A stretch of 64,000 bases of DNA from Clostridia bacterium. Its GTDB lineage: Bacteria; Bacillota; Sulfobacillia; SLMV01. This document shows positions 19,148 through 58,417 of the stretch, piece after piece. Numbering within the stretch: the first letter of the stretch is position 1; every line of letters starts with the position of its first letter. The stretch is taken from positions 276 to 64,275 of the forward strand of contig SLMV01000029.1 in assembly GCA_007133365.1 (NCBI GenBank). Reading direction: 5' to 3'. Made by a program: the position numbers and the translations under genes. The notes below the pieces were generated by a model. It made no database searches and was not told where the DNA came from. It was given only the letters and a program-made list of their open reading frames with translations.

Positions 19148-20206
19148 TCAAACGTACTGCTTTTGGACTTGTTTGGCGGACGAACGCTCAAGTCGCTCCC
19201 AGCGCTCGCACCGGCCACCCCACCGTCCGGCGACTTCACCATCAACGTACACTTCGAGAATCTCGCATTCATTGGAACACTCATCGCATTCGAAACTACC
19301 CGTCCGGTAGTCGACATCCATCAAAGACAACCCCCGAAAATGAGAATCTCGCGAAAGCACCGCCATCTCCTCTCGGGCGAGCAGGGCGGCTCCGATGGCG
19401 CCCATAACCTTGTGATGTTCGGGTACAATGACCTCCATTTCCAACTGTCGTTCAAGTGCCGCTTTGATCCCCGTGTTGGCGGCCACCCCTCCCTGAAACA
19501 CGACCGGCTCCAAAATTTTCTTGCCTTTGCCGACGTTGTTGAGATAATTTCGCACCAAAGCATCGCATAGACCCCGAATAATTTCCGGCGTCCCGTGCCC
19601 GACCTGCTGCTTATGGATCATATCGGATTCGGCAAAAACGGCGCAGCGTCCCGCAATGCGAACGCTCGCCTTGGCTTTCGCCGCCATTTCTCCGAACTGT
19701 TCGATCGGTAGCTCGAGCCGGTCCGCCTGACGGTCGAGAAAGGACCCGGTCCCGGCAGCACAGACGGTATTCATGGCAAAATCCGTCACCACACCGTCAC
19801 GGAGCAGAATTATCTTGGAATCCTGTCCTCCGATCTCAACCACGGTCCGAACGTTTGGAATCAACGCCAGTGCCGCCATCGCATGGGCGGTGATTTCGTT
19901 CTTTATGACATCGGCGCCGACGAAGACACCCGTCAGTTCGCGGGCTGATCCCGTAACGCCAGCGCCGGCGATTTCGATATTCCCTTCTTGCTTCTCCATC
20001 AGCTGTTTGAGGCTTCGCTGCACCGCCTTTAACGGATCCCCTGCGGTTCGCAAATACACGGACAATAAAACCGACCCCGACGGATCGAGCAATGCCAAAT
20101 TCGTGCTGACGGACCCCACGTCGAATCCCAAGAATGCCTTCATCCTGCCACGTCCTTCCGAAATACATCCCACTATTTTAAATAACGACCCACTCGTGAA
20201 AAGCAC
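19148..20206 (-). CDS. BadF/BadG/BcrA/BcrD-type ATPase (CoA-substrate-specific enzyme activase, HgdC-like) with a Cys-rich C-terminal tail
   Basis: ASKHA-fold motifs (FLGFDVGSVSTNLALLD; GAGVTGSAR; VVEIGGQDSKII). Conserved Cys near the helix-cluster region. Extra C-terminal CDECSNEC...C segment. The likely real start is MKAFLGFDVGS (~20143). Confidence 0.7.
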   Translation of the reverse strand: MLFTSGSLFKIVGCISEGRGRMKAFLGFDVGSVSTNLALLDPSGSVLLSVYLRTAGDPLKAVQRSLKQLMEKQEGNIEIAGAGVTGSARELTGVFVGADVIKNEITAHAMAALALIPNVRTVVEIGGQDSKIILLRDGVVTDFAMNTVCAAGTGSFLDRQADRLELPIEQFGEMAAKAKASVRIAGRCAVFAESDMIHKQQVGHGTPEIIRGLCDALVRNYLNNVGKGKKILEPVVFQGGVAANTGIKAALERQLEMEVIVPEHHKVMGAIGAALLAREEMAVLSRDSHFRGLSLMDVDYRTGSFECDECSNECEILEVYVDGEVAGRWGGRCERWERLERSSAKQVQKQYV

Positions 20207-21577: not shown

Positions 21578-22686
21578 CTATTTCAATAGGTGTTCGAGAG
21601 GCGTATACGGCATATCATGCGCTTCGGCGACGGCCTGGTAGGTCACCTGACCTTCCGCAACATTGACACCTTTTGCTAATGCGGGGTCCCGTCGAACGGC
21701 CTCTTTCCACTCGACCGAAGCCAGCACCCGAACGTAAGGCAGGGTGACATTGGTCAATCCCACGGTAGAAGTGCGCGGCACAGCACCGGGCATGTTGGCC
21801 ACTGAGTAGTGAACCACATCATGTTTGACGTAGGTCGGATCCGCATGCGTCGTCACTCGGTCAATCGTTTCAACCGATCCGCCTTGGTCAATGGCGACAT
21901 CGACGATGCCCGCTCCTTCCGGCATGGCCTTCACCATTTCCTCATCCACCAACTTAGGTGCTTTGGCACCGGGTACCAACACGGCGCCGATGAGCAGATC
22001 GGTGCTCGGCAATTCTTCCGCGATAAAATAGGGATTGGACATACGTGTTTCCAGCAATCCTCCGAAAACGTCGTCAAGGTAACGAAGACGAGAAGCGTCG
22101 ATATCATAAACTAGGACGCGGGCGCCAAGACCGACCGCCATTTTGGCAGCATTCGTCCCCACGATTCCCCCACCAATGATGACAACCTTGGCCGGAGCAA
22201 CGCCGGGAATACCACCGAGCAAAACACCGCCGCCGCCCCGATGCTTTTGTAAGATTTCCGTTCCAACTTGGGTCGCCATCCGCCCGGCAACCTCACTCAT
22301 GGGCGTAAGTAGCGGCAGGCTTCCATCGGGGAATTCGACGGTCTCATAAGCAATGGAAACCACGTTGTTATCGGCAAGCGCTTGCGTCAGTGCCTTCTCC
22401 GCTGCTAGGTGGAGGTATGTAAAAAGCAATTGCCCCGGTCGAAATAGATCGTATTCCGACTCTAGCGGCTCTTTGACCTTTAAAATCATATCCGCTTCTT
22501 CAAATACTTTCGCCGCGGTATCAAGAATGCTAGTGCCTGCCTCCTGATACGCCTCATCGGGAAAGCCGCTCCCTTCGCCGGCCGACCTCTCCAAATAAAC
22601 TTGGTGGCCATCCCCGACCAGCGTAGCGGCCCCGGCTGGCGTCATCGAAACCCGATGCTCGTTACTTTTGATTTCCTTCGGTACCC
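21578..22686 (-). CDS. ald: alanine dehydrogenase
   Basis: N-terminus [18 protein letters not shown] fold GGGIVG, and overall AlaDH/PNT family features. The likely GTG start at 22684-22686 is preceded by GGGGG. The ORF track extends it to 22792. Confidence 0.85.
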
Positions 22687-22819
22687 CAATTTTCACAATG
22701 ATGCCCCCTTCTCTCTCGATGCAATGATCCTCCGAAAACAGTACTACATTGACGAATTCATCACGTATTATTTTTATCATACCATCCATCAAAACCGAGA
22801 TAAACGGCGCAAAAAGGCA

Positions 22820-23470
22820 TTAAAGGCCTTGCGAATTGCTCTGATCAAATCCCCGATCACCGCCAGTTCGGTGACGATGGAGTAAGTACAAACTCGCCAG
22901 TGTCTTGGCGTCGACCACGTTGATGGCGTTACGTAACACCCATTTCATCGTAAGGTCCGCTTCATCGCCCTGGGGCGGATCGTCTGCCATTTCTAAATCC
23001 GTCGCCAAAAAGACATATATAAATTCGCTCGCAAACCCTGGCGAGGAATAAAAACCTCCGAGATATTCCCAGTCCTTGGCCGAGTATCCGGTCTCCTCCG
23101 CCAGCTCACGTCTAGCACAGTCAAACGCCGTTTCACCCGAGTCGACTCGGCCAGCCGGTAATTCCCATAAATAAGCATCCACCGGATCCCGATATTGCTT
23201 TACCAGCAACAGCTCCTCATCATCATCGCCTTCCCCTCGTAAAGCGATAATTGCACAGGCATCCCGGGTAACAACACGTTCTCGAATCTCACCTCGAGCA
23301 TTGGCCCGCTCCTCGACATTGACGATTCGACCTGAAAACGTAAGCTCCCAGTTACACACCCTGCTGCTCCCTTCCTCGCCGTCGGCCGATAGTTGCCAAT
23401 TGCAAAAGGACGTCCCCATTGAACCCGCGAATGCCGGAGCAAAGCGTCCCGCTTTCTCGATGGTCGTCAC
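22820..23470 (-). CDS. nudF: NUDIX hydrolase, ADP-ribose pyrophosphatase-like
   Basis: Nudix box GxxxxxxxxxxxxxxRELxEETGY (DSGETAFDCARRELAEETGY). The N-terminus of the ORF is probably over-extended. Confidence 0.7.
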   Translation of the reverse strand: MTTIEKAGRFAPAFAGSMGTSFCNWQLSADGEEGSSRVCNWELTFSGRIVNVEERANARGEIRERVVTRDACAIIALRGEGDDDEELLLVKQYRDPVDAYLWELPAGRVDSGETAFDCARRELAEETGYSAKDWEYLGGFYSSPGFASEFIYVFLATDLEMADDPPQGDEADLTMKWVLRNAINVVDAKTLASLYLLHRHRTGGDRGFDQSNSQGL

Positions 23471-23750
23471 CTATTGCAAAAGCAAACTCGCAATCAATCC
23501 GGCAAACCCGTGTGGGGAAGGGGGCGGTTTGAACCTCTTTAGTCCCCCTAGCACTGGACATCCTTTTCGGTTTATTCATCATCAGGCCTCATCCGTGACA
23601 CCAAGCCCCAATGGCCAGTCCTAGGTCATTCCATCTTCTTCAATTGTCCAAAAGGATATAACCTCGCTTGGCGATGGCGACGATTAGATTTCGACTGCCG
23701 ATGGCCCCGGGAGAACACAAGGGGAGCCGCCGACGTCAGCACCAACCGTT

Positions 23751-23799
23751 GTTGGCACTCCAAAAAGGAAAGAGAAAGGGCGCGGAGCCGGTCTTCGGA
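23751..23799 (-). terminator. candidate intrinsic terminator after the 237-aa hypothetical gene
   Basis: GC-rich imperfect hairpin GGGGGCGGCATCCGAAGACCGGCTCCGCGCCC on the minus strand (plus 23768-23799), followed by UUUCUCUUUCCUUUUUGG (plus 23751-23767). Confidence 0.4.
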
Positions 23800-23869
23800 T
23801 GCCGCCCCCTTTCGAACCATTCGCTTCTCAATATGGCTCGTCGCCGAATCTAGGAACCCGAGCGCAATT

Positions 23870-24583
23870 TCAGGCCGTATCCGAGTCCAATAGTTCCCGT
23901 AACTTCGGATACACGGCCGCTAGCACTGCTTGAACGGCGCCAATGGCCCAATCACTATTGGCCAACGGAGAAGCGCCGGCCAAATACTCGACCTGCCCAC
24001 GCGGGCGCACCAGACAAAGATGACAGACTGCCACTTCTCCTAAACCCAGCATCGTCGTCAGAATCTCGTCAAGTTGCAGCGAATAACCGGGTATAAGCAA
24101 TCGATTGATCGCCTCAACGGCAGCCTTGCCGGGGATCCGAACCGGCCGGTTCCAGCCATAGGTCGAAACCGCATGCCCTTTTGCCTCTCGGCCTAGGTGA
24201 TCGCGAAGGAGAAGGTTGACCTCCTGGGTCTCATCACCCGGGCGGCTGGACAGCCCGAGCCTCACCAGCGTCAGGCTGGGAGCGACCGTTCTGGTTGGCA
24301 TCGCCATCGCCTCAGGCGATGCCACCTGAGCCACGCTCACCTTCTTATGATCGATCTCAAGTTTCCACTTCGCCGCCAGGGCACTTTCGATATCACGCAC
24401 AATTTGCTTCGGGTTGCGCTCCACATCCGCAAGCACATGAATCTCATCAACGGCACCCCAACTATTACAAACCACACGGCAAGCATTGATAGCGGTCAAC
24501 CCGGAAAGGAGGGCCTCTACTTCTTCCACGTCGATCGATTTTGTCACGTACCGACCCCTCCCCACATTTGTGACGAATCTCAC
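23870..24583 (-). CDS. hypothetical protein (no family recognised by me)
   Basis: 237-aa ORF in the same orientation as the oxidoreductase genes, 53 bp downstream of them. It has good coding appearance but no motifs I can name. There is weak internal similarity between its two halves. Confidence 0.3.
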   Translation of the reverse strand: MRFVTNVGRGRYVTKSIDVEEVEALLSGLTAINACRVVCNSWGAVDEIHVLADVERNPKQIVRDIESALAAKWKLEIDHKKVSVAQVASPEAMAMPTRTVAPSLTLVRLGLSSRPGDETQEVNLLLRDHLGREAKGHAVSTYGWNRPVRIPGKAAVEAINRLLIPGYSLQLDEILTTMLGLGEVAVCHLCLVRPRGQVEYLAGASPLANSDWAIGAVQAVLAAVYPKLRELLDSDTA

Positions 24584-24636: not shown

Positions 24637-25179
24637 TCATTGTTGTTGATACAATTCGCGACCTCGCTCCAACGCCTTTTCATTGATCGGAATCAATTGA
24701 TGGTGACGTTCGGGAAGAACCGCCCGAAGCGAGGCCTTGATGGCATCAAAAGGCAGGTTGGGCAAACAACTTGCCAACGCCCCGAGCATTATCATATTGG
24801 CCACCCGAGCGTTGCCTAATCGGTCGGCCTCTTCCGTTACCGGTATTGTCACCACCTGGATATCATCCCGTTTCACCTCTTGATCGCAAAGTGAACTGTT
24901 GACGAACAAATGCCCGCTCGGCCGAACGGAGGATTCAAACTTCTCAAGGGACGGGAGATTCATCACGACGCACTCCGTCGGCTCCGTCACCACCGGTGAG
25001 CCGACCGGATCTTCCGATATGACCACACCGCAATTTGCTGTTCCCCCGCGCTGTTCCGGTCCATACGAGGGCATCCACGAGACATGAAGATCCTGCTCCA
25101 TTCCCGCGTGCGCCAATATTTGTCCCATCAACATGACGCCCTGGCCACCAAAGCCAGCAATGAGGATTTCATTCACCAT
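24637..25179 (-). CDS. 2-oxoacid:ferredoxin oxidoreductase gamma subunit
   Basis: ILIAGFGGQGV...GPEQRGGT..C motif characteristic of POR/KOR/VOR gamma subunits. 180 aa. Confidence 0.8.
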   Translation of the reverse strand: MVNEILIAGFGGQGVMLMGQILAHAGMEQDLHVSWMPSYGPEQRGGTANCGVVISEDPVGSPVVTEPTECVVMNLPSLEKFESSVRPSGHLFVNSSLCDQEVKRDDIQVVTIPVTEEADRLGNARVANMIMLGALASCLPNLPFDAIKASLRAVLPERHHQLIPINEKALERGRELYQQQ

Positions 25180-25927
25180 GATCCGTCACCGCCTCCGGGG
25201 TCTTGAGTTCGCCGATTGGGTAGTAGGGAATCATGTTCTCTTCCAGCCACTTCAGTGATTCGCCCGGCGTCATGCCCCAGTTAGTTGGGCAATTCGATAA
25301 CAATTCAACCATGGCAAAGCCAAGTCCTTCACGCTGCACTTCAAACGCCTTTTGCACCGACTGTTTCGCTTGTCGTATGTGCTTAACATCATGACACGAC
25401 ACGCGAGCAAGATACGCGACACCCGGCAATCCCTGGAGCATTTCGGACATCCGAAGCGGATGGCCTGTCAGCGACACATCGCGACCACTCGGCGAAGTCG
25501 TCGTGCGTTGACCTTCTAAGGTCGTGGGCGCCATTTGACCACCAGTCATGCCATAAATGGCATTATTGATAAAAATCACGGTGATCTTCTCACCCCGTGA
25601 AGCAGCGTGCATCGCTTCTGCCGCTCCGATGGAAGCGAGGTCACCATCTCCTTGGTAGGTAAAGACGATGCTATCCGGTCGCGCCCGCTTAATTCCGGTT
25701 GCCACTGCAGGGGCACGACCATGGGCGGCTTGCTGAAAGTCGCAATCAAAGTAATTGTAAGTAAACACAGAACAACCGACCGATGCTACACCAACGGCAC
25801 GCTCGGTGAGATCCAGTTCATCAAGGGCTTCCGCTACTAACCGATGAGCAATCCCGTGAAGGCAACCCGGACAATAGTGCGTCGCCTGATCACTCAACGC
25901 TTGGGGACGCGTAAATACCGCTTTCAT
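25169..25927 (-). CDS. 2-oxoacid:ferredoxin oxidoreductase beta subunit (TPP-binding)
   Basis: TPP motif GDGDLASIG...N, cluster-ligand Cys CPGC near the N-terminus, and an overlap with the gamma gene. Confidence 0.85.
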   Translation of the reverse strand: MKAVFTRPQALSDQATHYCPGCLHGIAHRLVAEALDELDLTERAVGVASVGCSVFTYNYFDCDFQQAAHGRAPAVATGIKRARPDSIVFTYQGDGDLASIGAAEAMHAASRGEKITVIFINNAIYGMTGGQMAPTTLEGQRTTTSPSGRDVSLTGHPLRMSEMLQGLPGVAYLARVSCHDVKHIRQAKQSVQKAFEVQREGLGFAMVELLSNCPTNWGMTPGESLKWLEENMIPYYPIGELKTPEAVTDHGE

Positions 25928-27030
25928 TTATGACCACCAACTTCCCGGATCAGAGTTTCCATTTTATCGCTAATGTCGGAAGGATGTGGCATCACCCCGC
26001 CGGCGGTGCCGATAAATTCAACCGGCAACTCGCTACCCACCGCCAGCCGAACATCCTCCACCATTTGCCCCATGCTCATTTCCACCACGACGTATCCGCG
26101 CGCTTTCTCGGCGAGCGAGGCAAATGCTTGGTCGGGGAAGGGCCAAAGACTGATCGGACGAACCAGTCCGACCGAATACCCGCGTTGCCGAAGCGATTCC
26201 AACGCTTTTTTCACGATTCGTGCGGTGGTACCATAAGCGGCAAAATAAAATTCCGCATCCTCATATAGGATTTCCCATCGGGTTTCATTCTCCTTCATCT
26301 GTCGATATTTCTCGCCCAACTTCTGGTTGTGTTCCCAGCACGCTTCAGCATCTAAATACAAAGAATTGATCAGATTGTTTTCTTTTCGCTTGCCACCGCG
26401 CCCAGTCGTGGCCCATTCTTTCACCGGCAACGTCTGGGGATCAAGAAGTTCGGGAAAGCGGACCGGTTCCATCATCTGTCCCATGATTCCGTCACCGAGA
26501 ATCATGACCGGATTGCGGTAGCGATCGGCGATATTAAACGATTCATAGGTAAGATCGACTAATTCCTGAAGGTCCGAAGGACCGAGCACCACCATGCGGT
26601 AGTCACCATGACCGCCGCCTTTCGTGGCTTGAAAATAATCGGATTGCGCCGGCTGAATGCTTCCCAAACCGGGTCCCCCTCGCACCATGTTCACGATGAC
26701 ACAGGGTAATTCCGAACCGGCCAAATAGGAGATTCCTTCCTGTTTCAGACTGATTCCGGGGCTTGACGATGAGGTCATCACCCGGACTCCGGCTCCGGCT
26801 GCGCCATACACCATATTGATGGCTGCCACTTCGCTTTCCGCCTGAAGATAAACACCTCCCAGTTCGGGAAGCCGCCATGACATATATGCCGGCAATTCAT
26901 TTTGGGGTGTAATTGGATATCCAAAAAAGTAGCGGCAACCTGCCCGCGCGGCCGCCTCTGCTACCGCCTCATTTCCTTTTACCAGCTGCAAGTCTTGATC
27001 CACAGTACCGCCCCTTTCGCTTCGATTCAC
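25924..27030 (-). CDS. 2-oxoacid:ferredoxin oxidoreductase alpha subunit
   Basis: N-terminal KGNEAVAEAAARAGCRYFFGYPITPQNE and domain II features. 368 aa. Overlaps the beta gene by 4 bp. Confidence 0.85.
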   Translation of the reverse strand: MNRSERGGTVDQDLQLVKGNEAVAEAAARAGCRYFFGYPITPQNELPAYMSWRLPELGGVYLQAESEVAAINMVYGAAGAGVRVMTSSSSPGISLKQEGISYLAGSELPCVIVNMVRGGPGLGSIQPAQSDYFQATKGGGHGDYRMVVLGPSDLQELVDLTYESFNIADRYRNPVMILGDGIMGQMMEPVRFPELLDPQTLPVKEWATTGRGGKRKENNLINSLYLDAEACWEHNQKLGEKYRQMKENETRWEILYEDAEFYFAAYGTTARIVKKALESLRQRGYSVGLVRPISLWPFPDQAFASLAEKARGYVVVEMSMGQMVEDVRLAVGSELPVEFIGTAGGVMPHPSDISDKMETLIREVGGHK

Positions 27031-27033
27031 CCA

Positions 27034-27261
27034 TTACTTTTTCGCTTCCTTTTCGGGCCGATAAACCTCGATGGCCACATCTGGACACATCATGGCACAA
27101 AAACCACAGCTGATGCATTTTTCCTCATCCGTCACCTGCACCGTCCGATATCCCTTACGGTTCATGGTATCCGATAGGTAAACGATATCGACGGGACAAA
27201 CCGAGGTGCACAAATCACACCCCTTACAACGTTCCGAGTTCAAAACCCATTTCGATCCCAT
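27034..27261 (-). CDS. 2-oxoacid:ferredoxin oxidoreductase delta subunit (2x[4Fe-4S] ferredoxin)
   Basis: Two CxxCxxCxxxCP motifs (CKGCDLCTSVCP and CISCGFCAMMCP). The ORF track extends to 27351, but an internal ATG at 27259-27261 with a GGAGGTG Shine-Dalgarno 5 nt upstream gives a canonical 75-aa delta subunit. This avoids overlap with the upstream NTPase gene. Confidence 0.75.
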   Translation of the reverse strand: MGSKWVLNSERCKGCDLCTSVCPVDIVYLSDTMNRKGYRTVQVTDEEKCISCGFCAMMCPDVAIEVYRPEKEAKK

Positions 27262-27292
27262 GCTGGCACCTCCAAAGCCTTTACCATGGTCA

Positions 27293-28012
27293 TTAACACC
27301 AATCCGGACGAAGCCGCGGGTTGATAACAATGAAATCAAGATCCCTCGCATCGCTCGCGATGTCGAGATCCTCAGACACTTGTTGTCCTTTAAGTACGTG
27401 CGCGCTTACTCCTAATCCTATCACAGGTATTCCTAACTGCCCGGCTGCTTGTTCCACCACACCGAGTCCCCAACGGATGTGATCCGCCTCGGTCTTAAAG
27501 CCCAGATGCGGATTGGCGATCAACCCGGCAATCGGCAATTTGGCCGCTTTTTCCAGCGCATAGTACGTGGCCACAATCCCGTCGCAAGAGGCGGTCTTCG
27601 GGCGGAAGGGATTAACGACCATCATGACCTGTGCTCTCGCCGCCTGCATCATTTGACGCACGCTCGCTAAGGGACGCGCTCCGACCTCGCTTCCCCCGAC
27701 ATCAACAATACAAACGTCGAATGCCGCCAGCGCCTGCGATAGACCGGCCGGCATAACGGGAAATTCGGTGCCGGCGTGAAAAGCCACCGGATGGACCACT
27801 TCCACTCCCTGAGCCGTTAGTTCCTCGATCAGCTCGCGGGAGCGGAAAAACGGGGTCACCAAGTCAAGATCCACCAATACCACCTTTGACTTTTCGGCAT
27901 CGCTCGCCGCCTCGATGGCAATTTGCATTGCGATTTCCGTTTTTCCGCTCCCGAACAGCCCCAAAACAACCAAGGGCCTCGAAGCCAGTCCTCGTAAAGA
28001 CACCTCAGACAC
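27293..28012 (-). CDS. uncharacterised P-loop NTPase, BioD/CobQ-N/Pta-N-like (SIMIBI, AAA_26-like) fold
   Basis: N-terminal Walker A GLFGSGKTE. About 95 aa later there is hhhhDxGG (FDVCIVDVGGSEV), followed by VMMVVNP...LPIAGLIANP, parallel to dethiobiotin-synthetase/CobQ-type proteins. The ORF track start (28129) overlaps leuDH-1 by 125 bp. GTG starts at 28010-28012 or 28001-28003 flank or overlap the leuDH-1 TGA, which suggests translational coupling. Confidence 0.5.
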   Translation of the reverse strand: MSEVSLRGLASRPLVVLGLFGSGKTEIAMQIAIEAASDAEKSKVVLVDLDLVTPFFRSRELIEELTAQGVEVVHPVAFHAGTEFPVMPAGLSQALAAFDVCIVDVGGSEVGARPLASVRQMMQAARAQVMMVVNPFRPKTASCDGIVATYYALEKAAKLPIAGLIANPHLGFKTEADHIRWGLGVVEQAAGQLGIPVIGLGVSAHVLKGQQVSEDLDIASDARDLDFIVINPRLRPDWC

Positions 28013-29075
28013 GAATTCGCTGTATTTGTCCGATGGCCTCAATTCGCGCTCTTGCGATTCGCTCGGCCGCCACATGGGTCGGAATGTCCTCTTTTTCGCT
28101 CGTTTCAAAGATGCGATGTAGCTGCCCACCGATTCCAGCTATCTTCTTATACGCGAGTTCCTTCGAGTAGCCGCCCGGATGAAACTCGTGGTAGACGTTT
28201 GTCACGCCCCCGCCATTGATGACAAAGTCCGTTGCATAAAGAATGCCCTTTTGCCTCAGCGCATCCCCGTGATGTCTTTCTTCCAGTTGATTGTTGGCCG
28301 CTCCGGCAACCACACGGCAGTTTAGTTGAGGCAAGGTCGTGTCGTTGATGACAGCACCGAGGGCACATGGAGAGTAGACATCGCAGGCGACGCCATAGAT
28401 GTCATCCGGATCGGCGACTTCGGCACCGAAATCACGGACCACTCGCTCAACCTTATCCTCATAAATATCCGAGACAATTAGCTCCGCACCGGCATCATGA
28501 AGGTAGTCGCAAAGCACATACCCGACACTTCCAACGCCTTGAATCGCCACCTTCGTGCCGGTCAGGTCAGACGAGCCATCAAGGTGTTCGATGGCGGCCT
28601 GAATCCCAACAAAAACGCCGTAAGCCGTGGCCGGTGAGGGATCACCCGATTTATGCATCAGACCGCCGGCAAACTCGGTCTCCTCCGCGACAATGGCCAA
28701 ATCTTCGGGACTCGTTCCGACATCCTCTGCCGTAATATAGCGGCCCCCCAGAGAATCGACAAAGCGGCCGTACGCACGCCACAGTTCCTCCGATTTGTCT
28801 TTGCGTGAATCCGCGATGATTACGCCTTTTCCGCCGCCAAGATTTAACCCCATCGCCGCACTCTTGTAGGTCATGCCTTGAGAAAGACGCAAGGCATCCA
28901 CAATGGCTTCTTCCTCGGTGTCGTAATTCCACATGCGCGTACCGCCCAGCGCCGGTCCCAACGTGGTATCGTGAATTGCGATGATGGCTTTGAGGCCGGA
29001 CACTTTATCATAGCAAAAGGCAATCTGCTCATGCCCCATATCGCTCATTAGCTCAAAAACTTCCATTAACGCCAC
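28005..29075 (-). CDS. Leu/Val/Phe-type amino-acid dehydrogenase (Glu/Leu/Phe/Val DH family), paralog 1
   Basis: 356 aa. Catalytic GGGKGVI motif. NAD GxGxxG (GVGSVG). N-terminal HEQIAFCYD typical of LeuDH/PheDH. The size matches LeuDH rather than GluDH. Confidence 0.8.
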   Translation of the reverse strand: MALMEVFELMSDMGHEQIAFCYDKVSGLKAIIAIHDTTLGPALGGTRMWNYDTEEEAIVDALRLSQGMTYKSAAMGLNLGGGKGVIIADSRKDKSEELWRAYGRFVDSLGGRYITAEDVGTSPEDLAIVAEETEFAGGLMHKSGDPSPATAYGVFVGIQAAIEHLDGSSDLTGTKVAIQGVGSVGYVLCDYLHDAGAELIVSDIYEDKVERVVRDFGAEVADPDDIYGVACDVYSPCALGAVINDTTLPQLNCRVVAGAANNQLEERHHGDALRQKGILYATDFVINGGGVTNVYHEFHPGGYSKELAYKKIAGIGGQLHRIFETSEKEDIPTHVAAERIARARIEAIGQIQRIRV

Positions 29076-29081
29076 TCCTCT

Positions 29082-30233
29082 CTAGGATTTTTCCGGGAGA
29101 TAAATCCGACTAATCCTACCCAATTTTTGAATGCGATCGGCCACAATGCGATCCGCGGCCTCAAACGGCGGGATATTCTCCTTCTCCGCCACTTCAAAGC
29201 AACCGAGCAATAGATCGTACAGATCCCCTGTTTTTTTCATCGCCCGATCCCAGTTAAATCCTTCAAGTTCATCCGCCACTTGGATCAAACCGCCGGCATT
29301 GACGATATAATCCGGTGCAAACAAAATGCCCTTTTCGTCCAGTTTCCGCCCAATGTCAGGATGCGATAATTGATTGTTCGCTGCACCCGCAATCACCCGA
29401 CACTTGAGGCGTTCGATACTATCCTCGTTGAGGACGCCTCCCATAGCGCAAGGGGCGAAAACATCACAATCAACATCGTAAATGGCATCCGGGGTCACGG
29501 CTTCAACTGGAAAACGCTGTTTGGTCTCTTGCACCACATTTTCATCAATATCCGTGACGATGACTTTGCAGCCGGCATCAATCAGATGCTCCACCAATCG
29601 TATCCCGACTTTGCCGACCCCCTGCACAGCGACGGTCTTATCCGCCAAGTTATCGGAACCAAACACCTGTCGAACGCCGGCCCGAATACCCTGGAGTACC
29701 CCGAAGGCCGTCGTCACGGAGGTGTTGCCACTTCCTCCGGCATATTCCGGGAGACCAACCAACCAATCGGTTTCCTGTCCAACGGTAACGAAGTCATCGA
29801 AGCTGGTCCCCATATCGGTACCGGTGATGACTCGACCCTTAAGGCCCTCAATGAAACGGCCAAACGCCCGAAGATAGGCCTCCGTTTTATCCGTCTCAGG
29901 ATCGCCCCATAACAGCGTCTTTCCGCCCCCGTGATTGCAGCGCGTGATCGCCGATTTTGCCGTCATCCCAAAGGACAAGCGCAGCACATCATCGATCGCT
30001 TCTTCTTCGGTTTCGTAAGGCCACATGCGACATCCCCCCAGGGCCGACCCCAAGGTGGAATCATGTATGGCCACCAATGCTTTGAGATTCGAATTCTCAT
30101 CGTAGGAAAGAATCAACTGCTCATGACCTTCCGCCGCCATCTTTTCAAAAATGCCCAAGGACAACTCTCCTTTCCCCAAGTCATTGTGTGTGGAATCCGG
30201 AAGTTTTGTTGATTTTCGCAATGTAGAACCCAA
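29082..30233 (-). CDS. Leu/Val/Phe-type amino-acid dehydrogenase, divergent paralog 2
   Basis: Roughly half its residues are identical to paralog 1 by eye. GGGK catalytic motif within an unusual NHGGGKTLLWGDP context. GVGKVG NAD motif. The likely true start is near 30160 (a TTG aligning with the paralog-1 N-terminus). Confidence 0.7.
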   Translation of the reverse strand: MGSTLRKSTKLPDSTHNDLGKGELSLGIFEKMAAEGHEQLILSYDENSNLKALVAIHDSTLGSALGGCRMWPYETEEEAIDDVLRLSFGMTAKSAITRCNHGGGKTLLWGDPETDKTEAYLRAFGRFIEGLKGRVITGTDMGTSFDDFVTVGQETDWLVGLPEYAGGSGNTSVTTAFGVLQGIRAGVRQVFGSDNLADKTVAVQGVGKVGIRLVEHLIDAGCKVIVTDIDENVVQETKQRFPVEAVTPDAIYDVDCDVFAPCAMGGVLNEDSIERLKCRVIAGAANNQLSHPDIGRKLDEKGILFAPDYIVNAGGLIQVADELEGFNWDRAMKKTGDLYDLLLGCFEVAEKENIPPFEAADRIVADRIQKLGRISRIYLPEKS

Positions 30234-30519
30234 AAAAATGGTTCGCTAGGAATATGCTGGATCACCTCAGGCCAAGGTTTCCTTAAATTCCAACCAGCGA
30301 ACCGCAAAAGACGTTCCAAATTCCTTGCGAATTCCTCACCAATCGTCAACTTCTTGCCATCGTCCGTTTCAGTAAAATACGGCCACGTTTCATCTGACAC
30401 CATCAATTCTACCTTATTGTTATTTTCGTCACGAGACCGCGCAATTCCTTCCCGATCGGACCAAACCCCCACCCCTCAATGTCATCGCTTGATTTAACAC
30501 GACCAACGTCAGAAGGATT

Positions 30520-31311
30520 CTATCGAGGCTTTCCAAATTGCATCCGGACCCGTTCGGCAACCAAAGCGATGAATTCCGAGTTCGTCGGTTTTCCTCGGGA
30601 TGACTTGGTAGAGTAACCAAAATATTCGGAAATGGCTTCCGGCCCCTCACGGGTAAAGGCAACGTTGATGGCGTGTCGGATGGCACGCTCAACCCGACTG
30701 GGGGTGCTGCCGTGATCCTCGGCCACCTTGGGGTAAAGCTTTGTGGTGATTCCATCAAGGAGGTTCGGATCATCGAGGGCGTGTAAGATGGCCGTTCGCA
30801 GATAGCGATAACCCTTTATATTGGCCGGGATCCCCAACATCTGGATGGTTTGGGTAATGGGTTTCGTCGGGTGATCCGCTGACGTCACCTCGACCTGCGC
30901 GCTCGCTTCGATTGACGGCTCTTTCGACCATTCGGGCCCAATGATCTCCCGAAGACGACGGCCAAACAATTCGAGGTCGAAAGGCTTTAACAGGAAGTAA
31001 TCAGCGCCTAGTTGGCTCGCCTTTTGGGTGATGTGCTCCTGACCAAACGCGGTGAGCACAAGACAGCGTGGTTTCTTATCGGCATCAATTGTCTGCAATC
31101 GCTCCAAAACCCCGATCCCATCGAGTCGCGGCATCACAACATCTAACACGAGCACATCGGGAACACACTTTTCGAGGGTGCAGAGCAGCTCGAGGCCGTC
31201 GTGCGCCACATCGACCAAATGTAAATCCGGTTGCTCCTCAATGTATTGTCCCAAGGTGCAACACAAATCAACATTATCGTCGGCAACCAAGATGGTAATG
31301 GGTCTTGTCAC
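30520..31311 (-). CDS. spo0A: stage 0 sporulation protein A (master sporulation response regulator)
   Basis: Receiver domain with the phospho-accepting Asp context (VLDVVMPRLDG). A Spo0A-specific C-terminal DNA-binding domain with GIPANIKGYRYLRTAILHALDDPNLLDGITTKLYPKVAEDHGSTPSRVERAIRHAI. Confidence 0.9.
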   Translation of the reverse strand: MTRPITILVADDNVDLCCTLGQYIEEQPDLHLVDVAHDGLELLCTLEKCVPDVLVLDVVMPRLDGIGVLERLQTIDADKKPRCLVLTAFGQEHITQKASQLGADYFLLKPFDLELFGRRLREIIGPEWSKEPSIEASAQVEVTSADHPTKPITQTIQMLGIPANIKGYRYLRTAILHALDDPNLLDGITTKLYPKVAEDHGSTPSRVERAIRHAINVAFTREGPEAISEYFGYSTKSSRGKPTNSEFIALVAERVRMQFGKPR

Positions 31312-57285: not shown

Positions 57286-58417
57286 AGACCCGCTTCATGC
57301 GCTCTAACAAGCCCGATTCGAGCGGTTCGATGGTCTCGCCGCGCATCCGCGCGAACTCCAAGAGCAGTTCCTTTTCTTCGGACGTTAGTTTCTTAGGAAT
57401 ATCGATTTCAACCTCAAAGATATGATCGCCACGCCCATATTTCTTCAAATAGGGGACGCCCTTCCCTTTGAGCGTGATGTGCTCACCGTGGCGAGTCCCG
57501 GGGTTGATCTCAATTTTTTCTGAGCCATCGAGTGTGGCCACTTCCTTTTTGGCGCCAAGACACGCTTCTACCATGGAGACGGTCACCTTGGACAGGACAT
57601 CATGCCCTTTGCGCTTGAATTCGGGATGAGGCCGTACCCGGATGCGAACGAATAGATCGCCCGGCGGTCCTCCGTCTCGACCCGGCTCGCCTTCTCCAGA
57701 GAGGCGAAGCCGCATGCCTTGATCCACACCCGCCGGAACATTCACGCTGATTTTCCGGCGTTGACGGACCCAACCGCGTCCGCGGCACTCCGGGCAGAGT
57801 TCCTCGATGATTTCACCTCGCCCCTGACACGTCGGGCACGTCCCGGTGGTGACAAATTCCCCAAGCGGTGTTCGCCGGGCCGATCTAACACGCCCGGTCC
57901 CACCACACTGGGCGCAAGTCTTGGGGCTAGTCCCCGGTTTCGCGCCACTGCCATCACAGGTGGGGCAGTATTCGTTGCGAATAATCTCGACCTCTCGTTC
58001 CGTCCCAAACACCGCGTCCATAAAGGACAACTCAATGGTCGTTTCGAGGTCGTTGCCGCGGGTCGGGCCGCTTCGTCTGGCCCGGCCCCCGAAGAAGGTC
58101 TCAAATATATCGGCAAAATCGGTAAAACCGCCAAAACCAGCAAAATCTTGACTGCCAAAACCACCGAACCCTTCAAACCCGGCGCCTTCCGTTTGGCCAA
58201 ACTGGTCATACATTTGGCGTTTCTCCGGATCACGAAGCACCTGGTACGCTTCGTTGATTTCCTTAAAGCGCTGCTCCGATTCCGGATCGTCCGGGTTGGC
58301 ATCGGGATGGTTCTCGCGCGCAAGCCGCCGATACGCCTTTTTTATTTCGTCTGGGGATGCATCACGCGAAACCCCCAGAATACTATAATAGTCTTTGTCG
58401 TTCGCCACACTCGTCAC
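57260..58417 (-). CDS. dnaJ: molecular chaperone DnaJ
   Basis: J-domain with HPD. Gly/Phe-rich region. Four CxxCxGxG zinc-finger repeats. Confidence 0.9.
   Translation of the reverse strand: MTSVANDKDYYSILGVSRDASPDEIKKAYRRLARENHPDANPDDPESEQRFKEINEAYQVLRDPEKRQMYDQFGQTEGAGFEGFGGFGSQDFAGFGGFTDFADIFETFFGGRARRSGPTRGNDLETTIELSFMDAVFGTEREVEIIRNEYCPTCDGSGAKPGTSPKTCAQCGGTGRVRSARRTPLGEFVTTGTCPTCQGRGEIIEELCPECRGRGWVRQRRKISVNVPAGVDQGMRLRLSGEGEPGRDGGPPGDLFVRIRVRPHPEFKRKGHDVLSKVTVSMVEACLGAKKEVATLDGSEKIEINPGTRHGEHITLKGKGVPYLKKYGRGDHIFEVEIDIPKKLTSEEKELLLEFARMRGETIEPLESGLLERMKRVFGRGGESA

Follow-up and report, generated by a model that had tools for sequence, protein, structure and literature searches.

Among the closest described systems to the locus reported here are clostridial 2-oxoacid:ferredoxin oxidoreductases (OFORs). 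[quoted passage not shown] The C. sporogenes 'PorA'/VOR and C. scatologenes HpdDEFG have separate delta (2x[4Fe-4S]), alpha, beta (TPP) and gamma subunits, and convert amino-acid-derived 2-oxoacids to acyl-CoA with reduction of ferredoxin. The locus described below shares the subunit make-up and is predicted to share the chemistry. In the clostridial pathways the 2-oxoacids come from aminotransferases, whereas here two NAD-dependent dehydrogenases are encoded in the operon. HpdJ (phosphate acyltransferase) and HpdK (kinase) correspond to a ptb/buk pair that is present in relatives of the locus but not in the locus itself. Archaeal VORs (Pyrococcus, Thermococcus, Methanothermobacter) have the same chemistry and four-subunit organisation but belong to another clade; the alpha subunit studied here scores only 82 bits against the archaeal VOR alpha model NF006232 (cut-off 646). 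In the Bacillus bkd operon, as far as the 1999 work is described in PMC8877110, leucine dehydrogenase (bcd) is likewise encoded with a 2-oxoacid-oxidising enzyme. Compared with that description, in relatives of our locus bkdR-like activators, -24/-12 promoters and the ptb and buk genes follow the same order, but the lipoamide BCKDH (E1 alpha/beta, E2, E3) has given way to a ferredoxin-reducing OFOR and an NTPase. The locus itself further differs in having a second dehydrogenase, with a predicted PheDH-like pocket, and in lacking ptb, buk and bkdR.

The window, a 64-kb stretch of DNA from an uncultured spore-forming bacterium, carries this cluster downstream of spo0A on the same strand:

30520..31311, minus strand: spo0A, context gene (TIGR02875 E = 1e-90; Response_reg and Spo0A_C domains)
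30303..30318, minus strand: candidate sigma-54 -24/-12 element TGGAACGTCTTTTGCG (160 nt before the start of DH-2)
29082..30158, minus strand: DH-2, amino-acid dehydrogenase (ELFV_dehydrog_N and ELFV_dehydrog domains)
28005..29066, minus strand: DH-1, amino-acid dehydrogenase (6ACF match E = 2e-131)
27293..28012, minus strand: SIMIBI-class P-loop NTPase (start uncertain: 28012, 28003 or 27973)
27034..27261, minus strand: OFOR delta, 75 aa (Fer4_7 and Fer4 matches)
25924..27003, minus strand: OFOR alpha (POR_N and PFOR_II domains)
25169..25927, minus strand: OFOR beta (TPP_enzyme_C domain)
24637..25179, minus strand: OFOR gamma (POR domain E = 4e-38)
23870..24547, minus strand: 225-aa protein resembling the LeuA regulatory domain (fold match of AF2 model; LeuA_dimer in homologue P0306)
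22820..23359, minus strand: Nudix hydrolase, NudE/ADP-ribose pyrophosphatase-like (NUDIX E = 1e-21)
21578..22789, minus strand: alanine dehydrogenase (AlaDh_PNT_N and AlaDh_PNT_C domains)

The operon is real, and its combination of amino-acid dehydrogenases with an iron-sulfur 2-oxoacid oxidoreductase is a known kind of pathway. The original prediction gave the order, strand and spo0A neighborhood of the seven named genes correctly; the 225-aa gene lies just beyond the interval it covered (24637-30233). Junctions are short or overlapping, from an 11-nt overlap (beta/gamma) to an 89-nt gap (gamma/225-aa gene), with gaps of 15 nt (DH-2/DH-1), 31 nt (NTPase/delta) and 30 nt (delta/alpha), a 4-nt overlap (alpha/beta) and, depending on the start chosen, an 8-nt overlap or 1-nt gap (DH-1/NTPase). 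The DH-2 start, TTG 30158, has a good AAGGAG Shine-Dalgarno sequence and is also used in the public assembly; position 30233, previously given as the DH-2 end, is the TTG of the longest ORF. The delta ATG (27261) is preceded by GGAGG. With domain E-values between 1e-14 and 1e-160, chance matches are no concern for the cluster genes, and the G+C content (0.54) is that of the flanks. The gene for Spo0A is also directly 5' on the same strand of four related clusters (L015, L079, L090, L107). The macro-synteny of the window (dnaK...sigA, spo0A, xerD, scpAB, cmk, der) is Bacillus-like, and the B. subtilis bkd operon presumably lies between spo0A and xerD.

The alpha subunit exceeds the 399-bit cut-off of the NCBIfam VorB model NF005507 (532.6 bits) and falls below cut-off for the KorA, PorA and IOR models of NCBIfam. 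KOR-type models and structures rank next, and the nearest solved structures are 1YD7, 8YS5 and 6N2N. We annotate alpha as a predicted VorB-type OFOR subunit. The clade does not fix the substrate range, because VorB is a name assigned by computation and the closely related HpdDEFG has a preference for (hydroxy)phenylpyruvate (PMC13285125). The delta subunit has the two CxxCxxCxxxCP motifs of a 2x[4Fe-4S] ferredoxin. Beta, with a GDGD...NN TPP motif and cysteines at CPGC, GCS and NCP, is predicted to bind TPP and [4Fe-4S].

Both dehydrogenases match G. stearothermophilus leucine dehydrogenase (LeuDH, 6ACF) far more strongly (DH-1, E = 2e-131; DH-2, E = 2e-116) than glutamate dehydrogenase (about 1e-22), which rejects a GluDH identity and upholds their Leu/Val/Phe-type assignment. 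They are 48% identical to each other. The DH-1 pocket (L40, A113, E114, V291, N293, V294) is identical to that of LeuDH, and by its residues DH-1 is a canonical leucine dehydrogenase. DH-2 retains the catalytic K68, K80 and D115 and carries a class signature (C43, H76, W84, G113, T114, F123, V124, L291, Q293), of which G113 and L291 occur together in 119/133 aligned sequences. Its F123-V124 aligns with F124-V125, the start of the specificity hexapeptide of T. intermedius PheDH (PMC9728165). As judged from this alignment, DH-2 falls into a conserved class of paralogs, newly recognised here, whose substrate pocket resembles that of PheDH. The pocket signature separating the paralogs supports the earlier suggestion of two substrate classes.

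We consider it likely that the cluster is an OFOR-based counterpart of the Bacillus bkd operon, with an accessory NTPase and a probable 225-aa sensor. Specifically, the dehydrogenases would deaminate amino acids to 2-oxoacids in NAD-dependent reactions, DH-1 accepting Leu, Ile and Val and DH-2 predicted to take bulkier or aromatic side chains. The VorB-type OFOR (delta, alpha, beta, gamma) would then convert 2-oxoacids and CoA to acyl-CoA and CO2, reducing ferredoxin. The acyl-CoAs may be branched-chain fatty-acid primers, or may be cleaved elsewhere. This bkd-like, ferredoxin-dependent reading holds because relatives encode ptb, buk and BkdR-like sigma-54 activators alongside these genes. Loci of this kind occur in H. 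orenii (NTPase, sigma-54 activator, DH-2 type, ptb, DH-1 type, buk, delta, alpha, beta), UBA3576 (DH-2, buk, ptb, DH-1, NTPase, delta, alpha, beta, gamma, 225-aa gene) and a Bacillales MAG (activator, ptb, DH, buk, NTPase, OFOR). The original prediction of a complete ferredoxin-dependent route is supported in its ferredoxin dependence but not in its completeness, since no ptb, buk, acyl-CoA synthetase or other acyl-CoA outlet was found in the window. Within the cluster an OFOR stands in the place of BCKDH, as had been suggested, but the chemistry is not new, being genetically and biochemically established in Clostridia (10.1101/401489; PMC13285125).

A BkdR-like activator gene was likewise not found in the window. 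The element TGGAACGTCTTTTGCG is the sole -24/-12 site in the 362-nt spo0A/DH-2 spacer. In each of eight related operons with a BkdR-like activator, one TGGCA[CT]-N5-TTGC site lies 64-113 nt before the first gene. Over the whole window the motif count is not above chance, and we treat this candidate sigma-54 promoter as a lead only.

OFORs and amino-acid dehydrogenases are both reversible, as both the deamination and the OFOR step would be here. The cluster could instead be biosynthetic, with the OFOR using reduced ferredoxin to carboxylate acyl-CoAs of exogenous branched-chain or aryl fatty acids and the dehydrogenases aminating the products to Leu, Ile, Val and Phe. Biosynthetic roles have been proposed for archaeal VOR/IOR and Bacteroides IOR, and each Hpd step is thermodynamically reversible (PMC13285125). 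The absence of the ATP-yielding ptb/buk outlet that marks catabolic versions fits this direction, as does the attached protein resembling the LeuA regulatory domain, which in LeuA mediates feedback by leucine. Nevertheless, we consider biosynthesis unlikely: the nearest relatives (L007, L034, L003, L088) hold ptb and buk in the operon, BkdR/sigma-54-type control is typical of degradation, the genes for alanine dehydrogenase and for one more amino-acid dehydrogenase run in the same direction, and there is no acyl-CoA ligase in the window.

The NTPase falls in a SIMIBI family that has no name and comprises about 1,100 clusters at 50% identity, and no Pfam or NCBIfam family model reaches cut-off on it. 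Public gene calls begin at 27964 or 27928 and cut into or lose the Walker A strand; beta1 is kept only with a start at GTG 28012 or GTG 28003. The nearest folds are the protein-acting GTPases FtsY, FlhF and SRP54, plus Get3, and the BioD-like label given before was not borne out. The SIMIBI class holds many dimerising accessory and maturation NTPases. Like those compared (SRP54/FtsY/FlhF, Get3, CooC, HypB-associated Mrp, NifH, MeaB-type chaperones), the protein has Walker A and B motifs, and an alpha/beta insertion between beta2 and beta3 resembles the insertion box of the SRP family. As with CooC, HypB and MeaB, its gene is linked to that of a metallo-enzyme. It lacks the N domain and TKxD guanine motif of SRP GTPases as well as the deviant KGGxxK Walker A of MinD, ParA, NifH and CooC. 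It also lacks a conserved Cys/His metal site, which rules out a metal or cluster carrier of CooC, HypB or Mrp type.

The NTPase gene is directly upstream of delta on the same strand in 72/80 NTPase-seeded genomes from about ten phyla (75/83 with three individually looked-up loci), usually with a gap of <250 nt. Among strictly evaluable alpha-seeded metagenome loci, 30/60 have it (38/67 if short contigs still showing the gene are included). Its presence tracks the alpha-subunit tree (7 parsimony changes, whereas 500 shuffles needed 22 on average and never fewer than 16). The gene, previously described as having no obvious role, is thus a conserved, co-inherited partner of the VorB-type OFOR clade and not incidental, a link newly recognised here; a search of PMC13285125 for ATPase or P-loop gave no mention, and the gene is discussed neither there nor in 10.1101/401489. 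It is dispensable for catalysis, given that half of the clade's operons do without it and that HpdDEFG, as a four-subunit enzyme, shows activity in vitro. Its function is not exclusive to OFORs, because the domain is fused to Mur-ligase domains elsewhere. Our best guess is that it catalyses no pathway step but serves the OFOR itself in assembly, maturation or regulation, depending on nucleotide and probably forming dimers. When co-expressed in E. coli, HpdF, the beta subunit, bound only weakly, leaving room for an assembly aid (PMC13285125). If so, the NTPase would be an unrecognised helper for 2-oxoacid oxidoreductase in bacteria of many phyla.

Quite improbable, in our view, is a role as a pathway enzyme, for instance a kinase or ligase whose small-molecule substrate is an acyl phosphate, a CoA-related nucleotide or a TPP precursor. 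In favour of it, the Mur-ligase fusions, found in several lineages, involve ATP-dependent carboxylate-amine ligases, and the NTPase gene often overlaps buk by 1 nt. However, it accompanies ptb and buk in many operons and so is no replacement for them, and in some loci (e.g., L005, L011-L015) the OFOR genes are its only companions from the pathway. Further, there is no recognisable substrate-binding domain outside the roughly 230-aa NTPase core, and its nearest folds are those listed above rather than BioD.

The 225-aa gene, previously called hypothetical, has a recognisable fold. The window protein has no Pfam hit, and its homologue P0306 matches LeuA_dimer (26.3 bits, cut-off 24.9). For its AF2 model (pLDDT 91), the only significant PDB fold matches are to M. 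tuberculosis LeuA (1SR9, 3FIG), including the leucine-bound form (E about 1e-6). We newly recognise the modeled protein as a stand-alone homologue of LeuA's leucine-binding regulatory domain. Unlike LeuA, it has an extra N-terminal alpha/beta domain of ~75 aa and no catalytic TIM barrel. It is probably a small-molecule sensor, with an amino acid or 2-oxoacid as candidate ligand. Orthologues follow gamma in L007 and L008, and other homologues follow Liv or Opp transporters.

That the NTPase and 225-aa protein are functionally unrelated to the dehydrogenases and OFOR, their order kept by inheritance only, is very improbable: the NTPase-free half of VorB-clade operons, the want of any OFOR subunit residue that separates operons with and without the NTPase, family members in other settings (YbbR-x-NTPase-RsmF, Mur-ligase fusions) and a 225-aa gene behind gamma only in the closest relatives would fit, but same-strand NTPase-delta adjacency across about ten phyla with wholly different flanks is hard to explain without selection, persists where subunits are permuted (NTPase-delta-beta-gamma-alpha in L020 and L111), and follows the alpha phylogeny.

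Beyond the 225-aa gene, the alanine dehydrogenase gene is co-directional and about 30 nt beyond the Nudix gene; the two are a possible extension of the cluster. Nudix homologues are directly 3' of gamma in seven related loci (L006, L010, L026, L088, L116, L127, L141), and an Ald 65% identical to the window copy occupies that position in L034.

What is new at this locus is a conserved, unnamed NTPase partner of the 2-oxoacid:ferredoxin oxidoreductase (OFOR), a LeuA-domain-like protein in the operon, and a pair of dehydrogenases with leucine dehydrogenase (LeuDH) and predicted phenylalanine dehydrogenase (PheDH) pockets as a recurring operon feature; this kind of OFOR enzyme and pathway is already established in the literature. 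The seven-gene cluster and hypothetical gene that had been predicted beside spo0A were recovered as one co-directional series by ORF listing and domain scans. The cluster lies immediately downstream of spo0A, its junctions range from an 11-nt overlap up to an 89-nt gap, and the alpha/beta and beta/gamma OFOR genes overlap.

Features of the locus, in order of decreasing window coordinate
30520-31311, minus strand: spo0A (TIGR02875, E = 1e-90)
30303-30318, minus strand: candidate sigma-54-like -24/-12 element, TGGAACGTCTTTTGCG, in the spo0A/DH-2 spacer
29082-30158, minus strand: DH-2, amino-acid dehydrogenase (ELFV dehydrogenase)
28005-29066, minus strand: DH-1, amino-acid dehydrogenase (ELFV dehydrogenase)
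27293 to about 28012, minus strand: P-loop protein (the NTPase; Walker A)
27034-27261, minus strand: OFOR delta, 8-Cys ferredoxin (Fer4_7)
25924-27003, minus strand: OFOR alpha (POR_N and PFOR_II)
25169-25927, minus strand: OFOR beta (TPP_enzyme_C)
24637-25179, minus strand: OFOR gamma (POR domain)
23870-24547, minus strand: 225-aa ORF with a strong Shine-Dalgarno sequence, without family match
21578-23359, minus strand: NudE/ADP-ribose-pyrophosphatase-like Nudix gene and alanine dehydrogenase (ald), following the cluster

The right-hand boundary originally given for the cluster, 30233, is the longest-ORF start of DH-2; the public assembly uses a TTG at 30158, which is preceded by a Shine-Dalgarno sequence. 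In public gene calls the NTPase is 223 or 211 aa long; it begins at 27964 or 27928, within the Walker A motif or beyond it, and the Walker A strand is cut or lost. Based on comparison with 50 homologues, we place the true start upstream, at GTG 28012 or GTG 28003. Automatic annotation may have truncated this family systematically where a GTG or TTG start overlaps the preceding gene. The window comes from the chromosomal core of an uncultured Bacillota MAG. On the large scale its gene order resembles that of Bacillus (hrcA-dnaK-dnaJ ... era-recO-glyQS-ppdK-dnaG-sigA, spo0A, the cluster, nudix, ald, xerD, scpAB, sucCD, cmk, rpsA, der, gpsA), and the G+C content of the cluster (0.54) is the same as that of its flanks. 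The gene spo0A is the upstream neighbor in four other Bacillota loci as well.

The oxidoreductase has the four-subunit form, with separate, contiguous beta, gamma, and delta subunits (Pfam TPP_enzyme_C, POR, and Fer4_7), and its translations retain intact cofactor motifs: two CxxCxxCxxxCP motifs in delta, and GDGD...NN plus Cys residues in beta. On the NCBIfam NF005507 "VorB" subfamily model the alpha subunit reaches 532.6 bits (cut-off 399), and it falls far under the cut-offs of the KorA, PorA, archaeal VOR, and IOR models; the PadG and oxalate models also failed. Passing VorB and failing KorA and PorA, the enzyme does not group with POR or KOR, in keeping with the chemistry first proposed for it. 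The nearest solved structures to alpha are the alpha subunit of the P. furiosus 2-keto acid:ferredoxin oxidoreductase (1YD7) and KORs (8YS5 and 6N2N), so we place it in the bacterial "VorB" clade and not in the archaeal VOR clade. Branched-chain 2-oxoacids are the predicted substrates, as suggested by the LeuDH context and by the ptb and buk genes of relatives. HpdDEFG of C. scatologenes, put in the VOR cluster by its authors, prefers (hydroxy)phenylpyruvate (PMC13285125). A 2026 study reconstituted this four-subunit enzyme alongside a phosphate acyltransferase and an acyl kinase, reported such trios to be widespread in Firmicutes, and showed that enzymes of the clade need not be specific for branched-chain substrates (PMC13285125). 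C. sporogenes depends on an OFOR ("porA"), not on BCKDH, to form isobutyrate, 2-methylbutyrate, and isovalerate (10.1101/401489). In anaerobes of gut and sediment, OFOR-based oxidation of branched-chain and aromatic amino acids gives rise to arylacetates and branched short-chain fatty acids. It is the anaerobic equivalent of the BCKDH route, from which Bacilli draw their membrane-lipid primers.

Both dehydrogenases proved to be of the Leu/Phe/Val type, as had been predicted, and neither groups with glutamate dehydrogenase (GluDH): they match the LeuDH structure 6ACF at E = 2e-131 (DH-1) and 2e-116 (DH-2), versus only about 1e-22 for GluDH. The two share 48% identity. Their pockets were compared in an alignment of 133 sequences, mostly the best database matches of DH-2, numbered on the G. 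stearothermophilus LeuDH. The canonical residues L40, K68, K80, A113, E114, D115, V291, N293, and V294 are all present in DH-1, which thus combines the catalytic K68/K80/D115 with the aliphatic pocket (L40/A113/V291/V294) expected of LeuDH (EC 1.4.1.9). DH-2 retains catalytic K68, K80, and D115 and carries C43, H76, W84, G113, T114, F123, V124, L291, and Q293; G113 and L291 stand in place of the aliphatic A113/V291 of LeuDH. G113 and L291 occur together in 119 of the 133 aligned sequences, a class signature and not a one-off. In mutagenesis work by Seah and Engel, a smaller residue at 113 and Leu at 291 reportedly set the B. sphaericus PheDH (EC 1.4.1.20) apart from LeuDH. We take G124 and L307 of that PheDH to be the equivalents of LeuDH A113 and V291. 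The specificity hexapeptide of the T. intermedius PheDH starts with F124-V125 (PMC9728165), and DH-2 F123-V124 aligns with these two residues; the remainder of the hexapeptide differs (TVGQ versus HAAR). Overall, DH-2 is closer to LeuDH structures than to the Rhodococcus PheDH. From the pocket residues and the hexapeptide alignment we infer that DH-1 is a true LeuDH and DH-2 a paralog with a PheDH-like pocket, predicted to accept bulkier or aromatic side chains. Both types occur within one operon in Halothermothrix orenii, Firmicutes bacterium UBA3576, and two further loci (L034 and L088), and from this pairing one can derive testable predictions of the amino acids used by such operons.

Related loci, from other genomes and metagenomes, were collected with the NTPase and with the alpha subunit as seeds and scanned by tblastn. 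The gene order in the closest relative, UBA3576 (L007), is DH-2, buk, ptb, DH-1, NTPase, delta, alpha, beta, gamma, and the 225-aa gene. H. orenii (L003) has the NTPase, a sigma-54 activator, a DH-2-type gene, ptb, a DH-1-type gene, buk, delta, alpha, and beta, and a Bacillales MAG (L032) has the activator, ptb, a dehydrogenase, buk, the NTPase, delta, alpha, beta, and gamma. The bkd operon of B. subtilis begins bkdR-ptb-bcd-buk (PMC8877110); L032 keeps this order, but the NTPase and OFOR stand in place of lpdV-bkdAA-bkdAB-bkdB. By comparison, the cluster studied here shares only the bcd-like dehydrogenase with the B. subtilis operon and is an analogue, not a member. No lpdV, bkdAA, bkdAB, bkdB, ptb, buk, or BkdR gene was found in the 64-kb window, nor any PTA_PTB or acetate/butyrate kinase homologue. 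Compared with the trio of OFOR, phosphate acyltransferase, and kinase (PMC13285125), the window therefore has the OFOR alone, whereas the full trio is present in relatives (L003, L004, L006, L007, L034, and others). The original prediction of a complete route from amino acids to acyl-CoA is right in substance, but the system is of a known kind and, lacking ptb and buk, is incomplete in the window. Any acyl-CoA formed may serve here as lipid primers, or may have its outlet elsewhere, and flux may run in either direction.

Of more consequence than the known pathway would be the NTPase, an unnamed protein of approximately 230 aa that is co-inherited with the OFOR in about ten phyla. It has no family assignment: Pfam CbiA reaches only 17.5 bits (cut-off 25.4), and there is no NCBIfam match. 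A word-indexed search returned 1,221 homologues, and the family contains 1,118 representatives of 50%-identity clusters at E <= 1e-30. Conserved motifs are a Walker A GxFGSGKTE, DLD, F-R-x-R, a Walker B DVGG, VVNPxRP, ANPHLG, and a C-terminal PxW. A confident AF2 model (pLDDT 88.3), with a GxxGxGK[ST] Walker A, a Walker B Asp that closes a hydrophobic strand, and a seven-stranded, mostly parallel sheet of SIMIBI topology, places the protein among SIMIBI-class P-loop NTPases. The earlier description of a BioD-like P-loop NTPase holds for the class but not for BioD identity: there is no BioD/AAA_26 match in Pfam or NCBIfam even at E <= 10, and in structure searches BioD ranks below SRP-type GTPases, a likeness generic for the class.

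Assignments to other SIMIBI families were rejected. Members of the SRP family (Ffh/FtsY/FlhF) have a G4 TKxD motif and a four-helix N domain; the protein has ANPHLG at G4, with no Asp, and is only about 230 aa long, with no more than 15 residues preceding the P-loop. Its Walker A (G-x-F/Y-G-S-G-K-T/S-E) lacks the signature lysine of the deviant KGGxGK[ST] form, which excludes the MinD/ParA/NifH/CooC group and positioning ATPases. A metal or Fe-S chaperone (Mrp/NBP35/ApbC, CooC, HypB, or UreG) was rejected for want of a conserved Cys/His motif: across 52 NTPase sequences, none of the invariant or near-invariant positions is a Cys or a His.

The NTPase gene is directly upstream of the OFOR genes and on the same strand in 72 of 80 genome loci from the NTPase-seeded scan (75 of 83 when three individually looked-up loci are added). 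The nearest of these genome loci, by NTPase, is in an unclassified Bacillota MAG (43% identity). The loci derive from Bacillota, Atribacterota, Desulfobacterota, Anaerolineae, Planctomycetota, Myxococcota, Zixibacteria, Actinomycetota, Ignavibacteria, and others, and their flanking genes are otherwise unrelated. Among loci seeded with alpha, a sampling unbiased with respect to the NTPase, the gene is present in 30 of 60 strictly evaluable operons, or 38 of 67 including short contigs that still show the gene. Mapped on a neighbor-joining tree of the alpha subunit, presence of the NTPase requires 7 parsimony changes (mean 22 and minimum 16 over 500 label shuffles). The protein had been described as having no obvious role in this chemistry; synteny and the tree identify its gene as an accessory one that is inherited together with part of the clade. 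It is not needed for catalysis. In two loci (L020, 8001-11433, and L111, 28-3115) the OFOR order is permuted to delta-beta-gamma-alpha, and the NTPase is still directly upstream of delta.

Our best guess, held at a little short of even confidence, is that the NTPase would be a nucleotide-dependent, probably dimerizing factor that assembles, matures, or regulates the OFOR. Once its Fe-S clusters had been reconstituted chemically, recombinant HpdDEFG was active as a four-subunit enzyme, although its beta subunit bound poorly (PMC13285125). Near-identical NTPase domains (250-265 bits against the family profile) are fused C-terminally to Mur-ligase M+C domains in other lineages (proteins P0384, P0385, P0435, and P0449; locus L058, 6399-8720), the only fusion partners found in a Rosetta-stone search, which gave no clear mechanistic link to OFORs. 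A role of the NTPase as a small-molecule kinase or ligase appears unlikely. In Christensenellales-type genomes (L045, L053, and L067), the gene sits in the order YbbR, a Pro-rich unknown protein, NTPase, and RsmF, with no OFOR nearby; the unknown ORF upstream of it is not Mur-ligase-like. Operons with and without the NTPase could not be told apart by any residue of alpha, beta, gamma, or delta. The Mur-ligase fusions, rsmF contexts, and lack of distinguishing residues speak against an exclusive OFOR role; that the NTPase has no functional link to the OFOR at all, a reading that these contexts favor and the adjacency and tree oppose, is very improbable. Nothing on an NTPase-OFOR link was found in the searchable literature library. 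If an OFOR factor, the NTPase would be the first accessory protein known to be dedicated to an OFOR. Should it assemble, repair, or gate the enzyme, it would be a missing component for heterologous expression and enzymology, and a new branch of SIMIBI accessory NTPases.

The hypothetical gene of the original prediction is present, and its product is probably related to the regulatory domain with which LeuA binds leucine. The 225-aa protein has 338 homologues, all in Firmicutes. The window protein itself has no Pfam match, and its homologue P0306 passes Pfam LeuA_dimer (PF08502; 26.3 bits versus 24.9). Searches with the AF2 model (pLDDT 91) were significant only for M. tuberculosis LeuA, the leucine-bound form included (E = 1e-6 to 3e-5); at E <= 1e-3 only LeuA structures were returned, with low TM-scores (0.35) owing to domain arrangement. 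Orthologues follow OFOR gamma in the two nearest relatives. It is reasonable to regard the protein as a stand-alone putative sensor for branched-chain amino acids or their oxoacids. Distant homologues (L086, 7001-7645, and L087, 7001-7663) follow Liv-type branched-chain amino-acid ABC or Opp transporters and precede HD-domain (HD_5) and DUF5317 genes, a setting that suggests a conserved sensor module. Tentatively, the NTPase may define a large unnamed SIMIBI family that would serve a major bacterial OFOR clade as its dedicated, nucleotide-dependent partner, either in assembly or maturation or as a regulatory subunit that senses energy state, and a stand-alone LeuA-type ligand sensor would further tune the operon.

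Each of the eight activator-bearing operons that were examined carries a single TGGCA[CT]-N5-TTGC element, located 64-113 nt ahead of the first gene. The candidate at 30303-30318 is weaker than these sites in relatives, the -24/-12 motif is not enriched across the window, and there is no enhancer-binding activator gene in the window. TGGAACGTCTTTTGCG falls within a 96-aa ORF (30113-30403) reported by public gene callers; this ORF overlaps the DH-2 start and is probably spurious. Simple scans of the cluster for sigma-70 promoters and terminators gave nothing above shuffled expectation. Downstream, the functional unit may extend to 21578, because Nudix and Ald genes adjoin gamma in other loci: Nudix is directly downstream of OFOR gamma in seven (L006, L010, L026, L088, L116, L127, and L141, Atribacterota included), and Ald directly follows gamma in L034. 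The approximately 500 nt that separate the 225-aa gene from the Nudix gene (23360-23870) have no Rfam match at the gathering score (best E = 0.6) and contain only short, poorly supported ORFs.

An Rfam scan of the whole window detected three tRNAs only, all outside the cluster. ARAGORN called a 95-nt tRNA-Pro at 57638-57732 on the minus strand, within the dnaJ ORF and absent from the Rfam scan, which is probably a false positive. An ORF for a BcrAD_BadFG-type ATPase (19148-20206, minus strand) stands on its own, flanked by xerD and a gene for a peptidase M50; its fold family comprises activators of 2-hydroxyacyl-CoA dehydratases and benzoyl-CoA reductase, and also sugar kinases.
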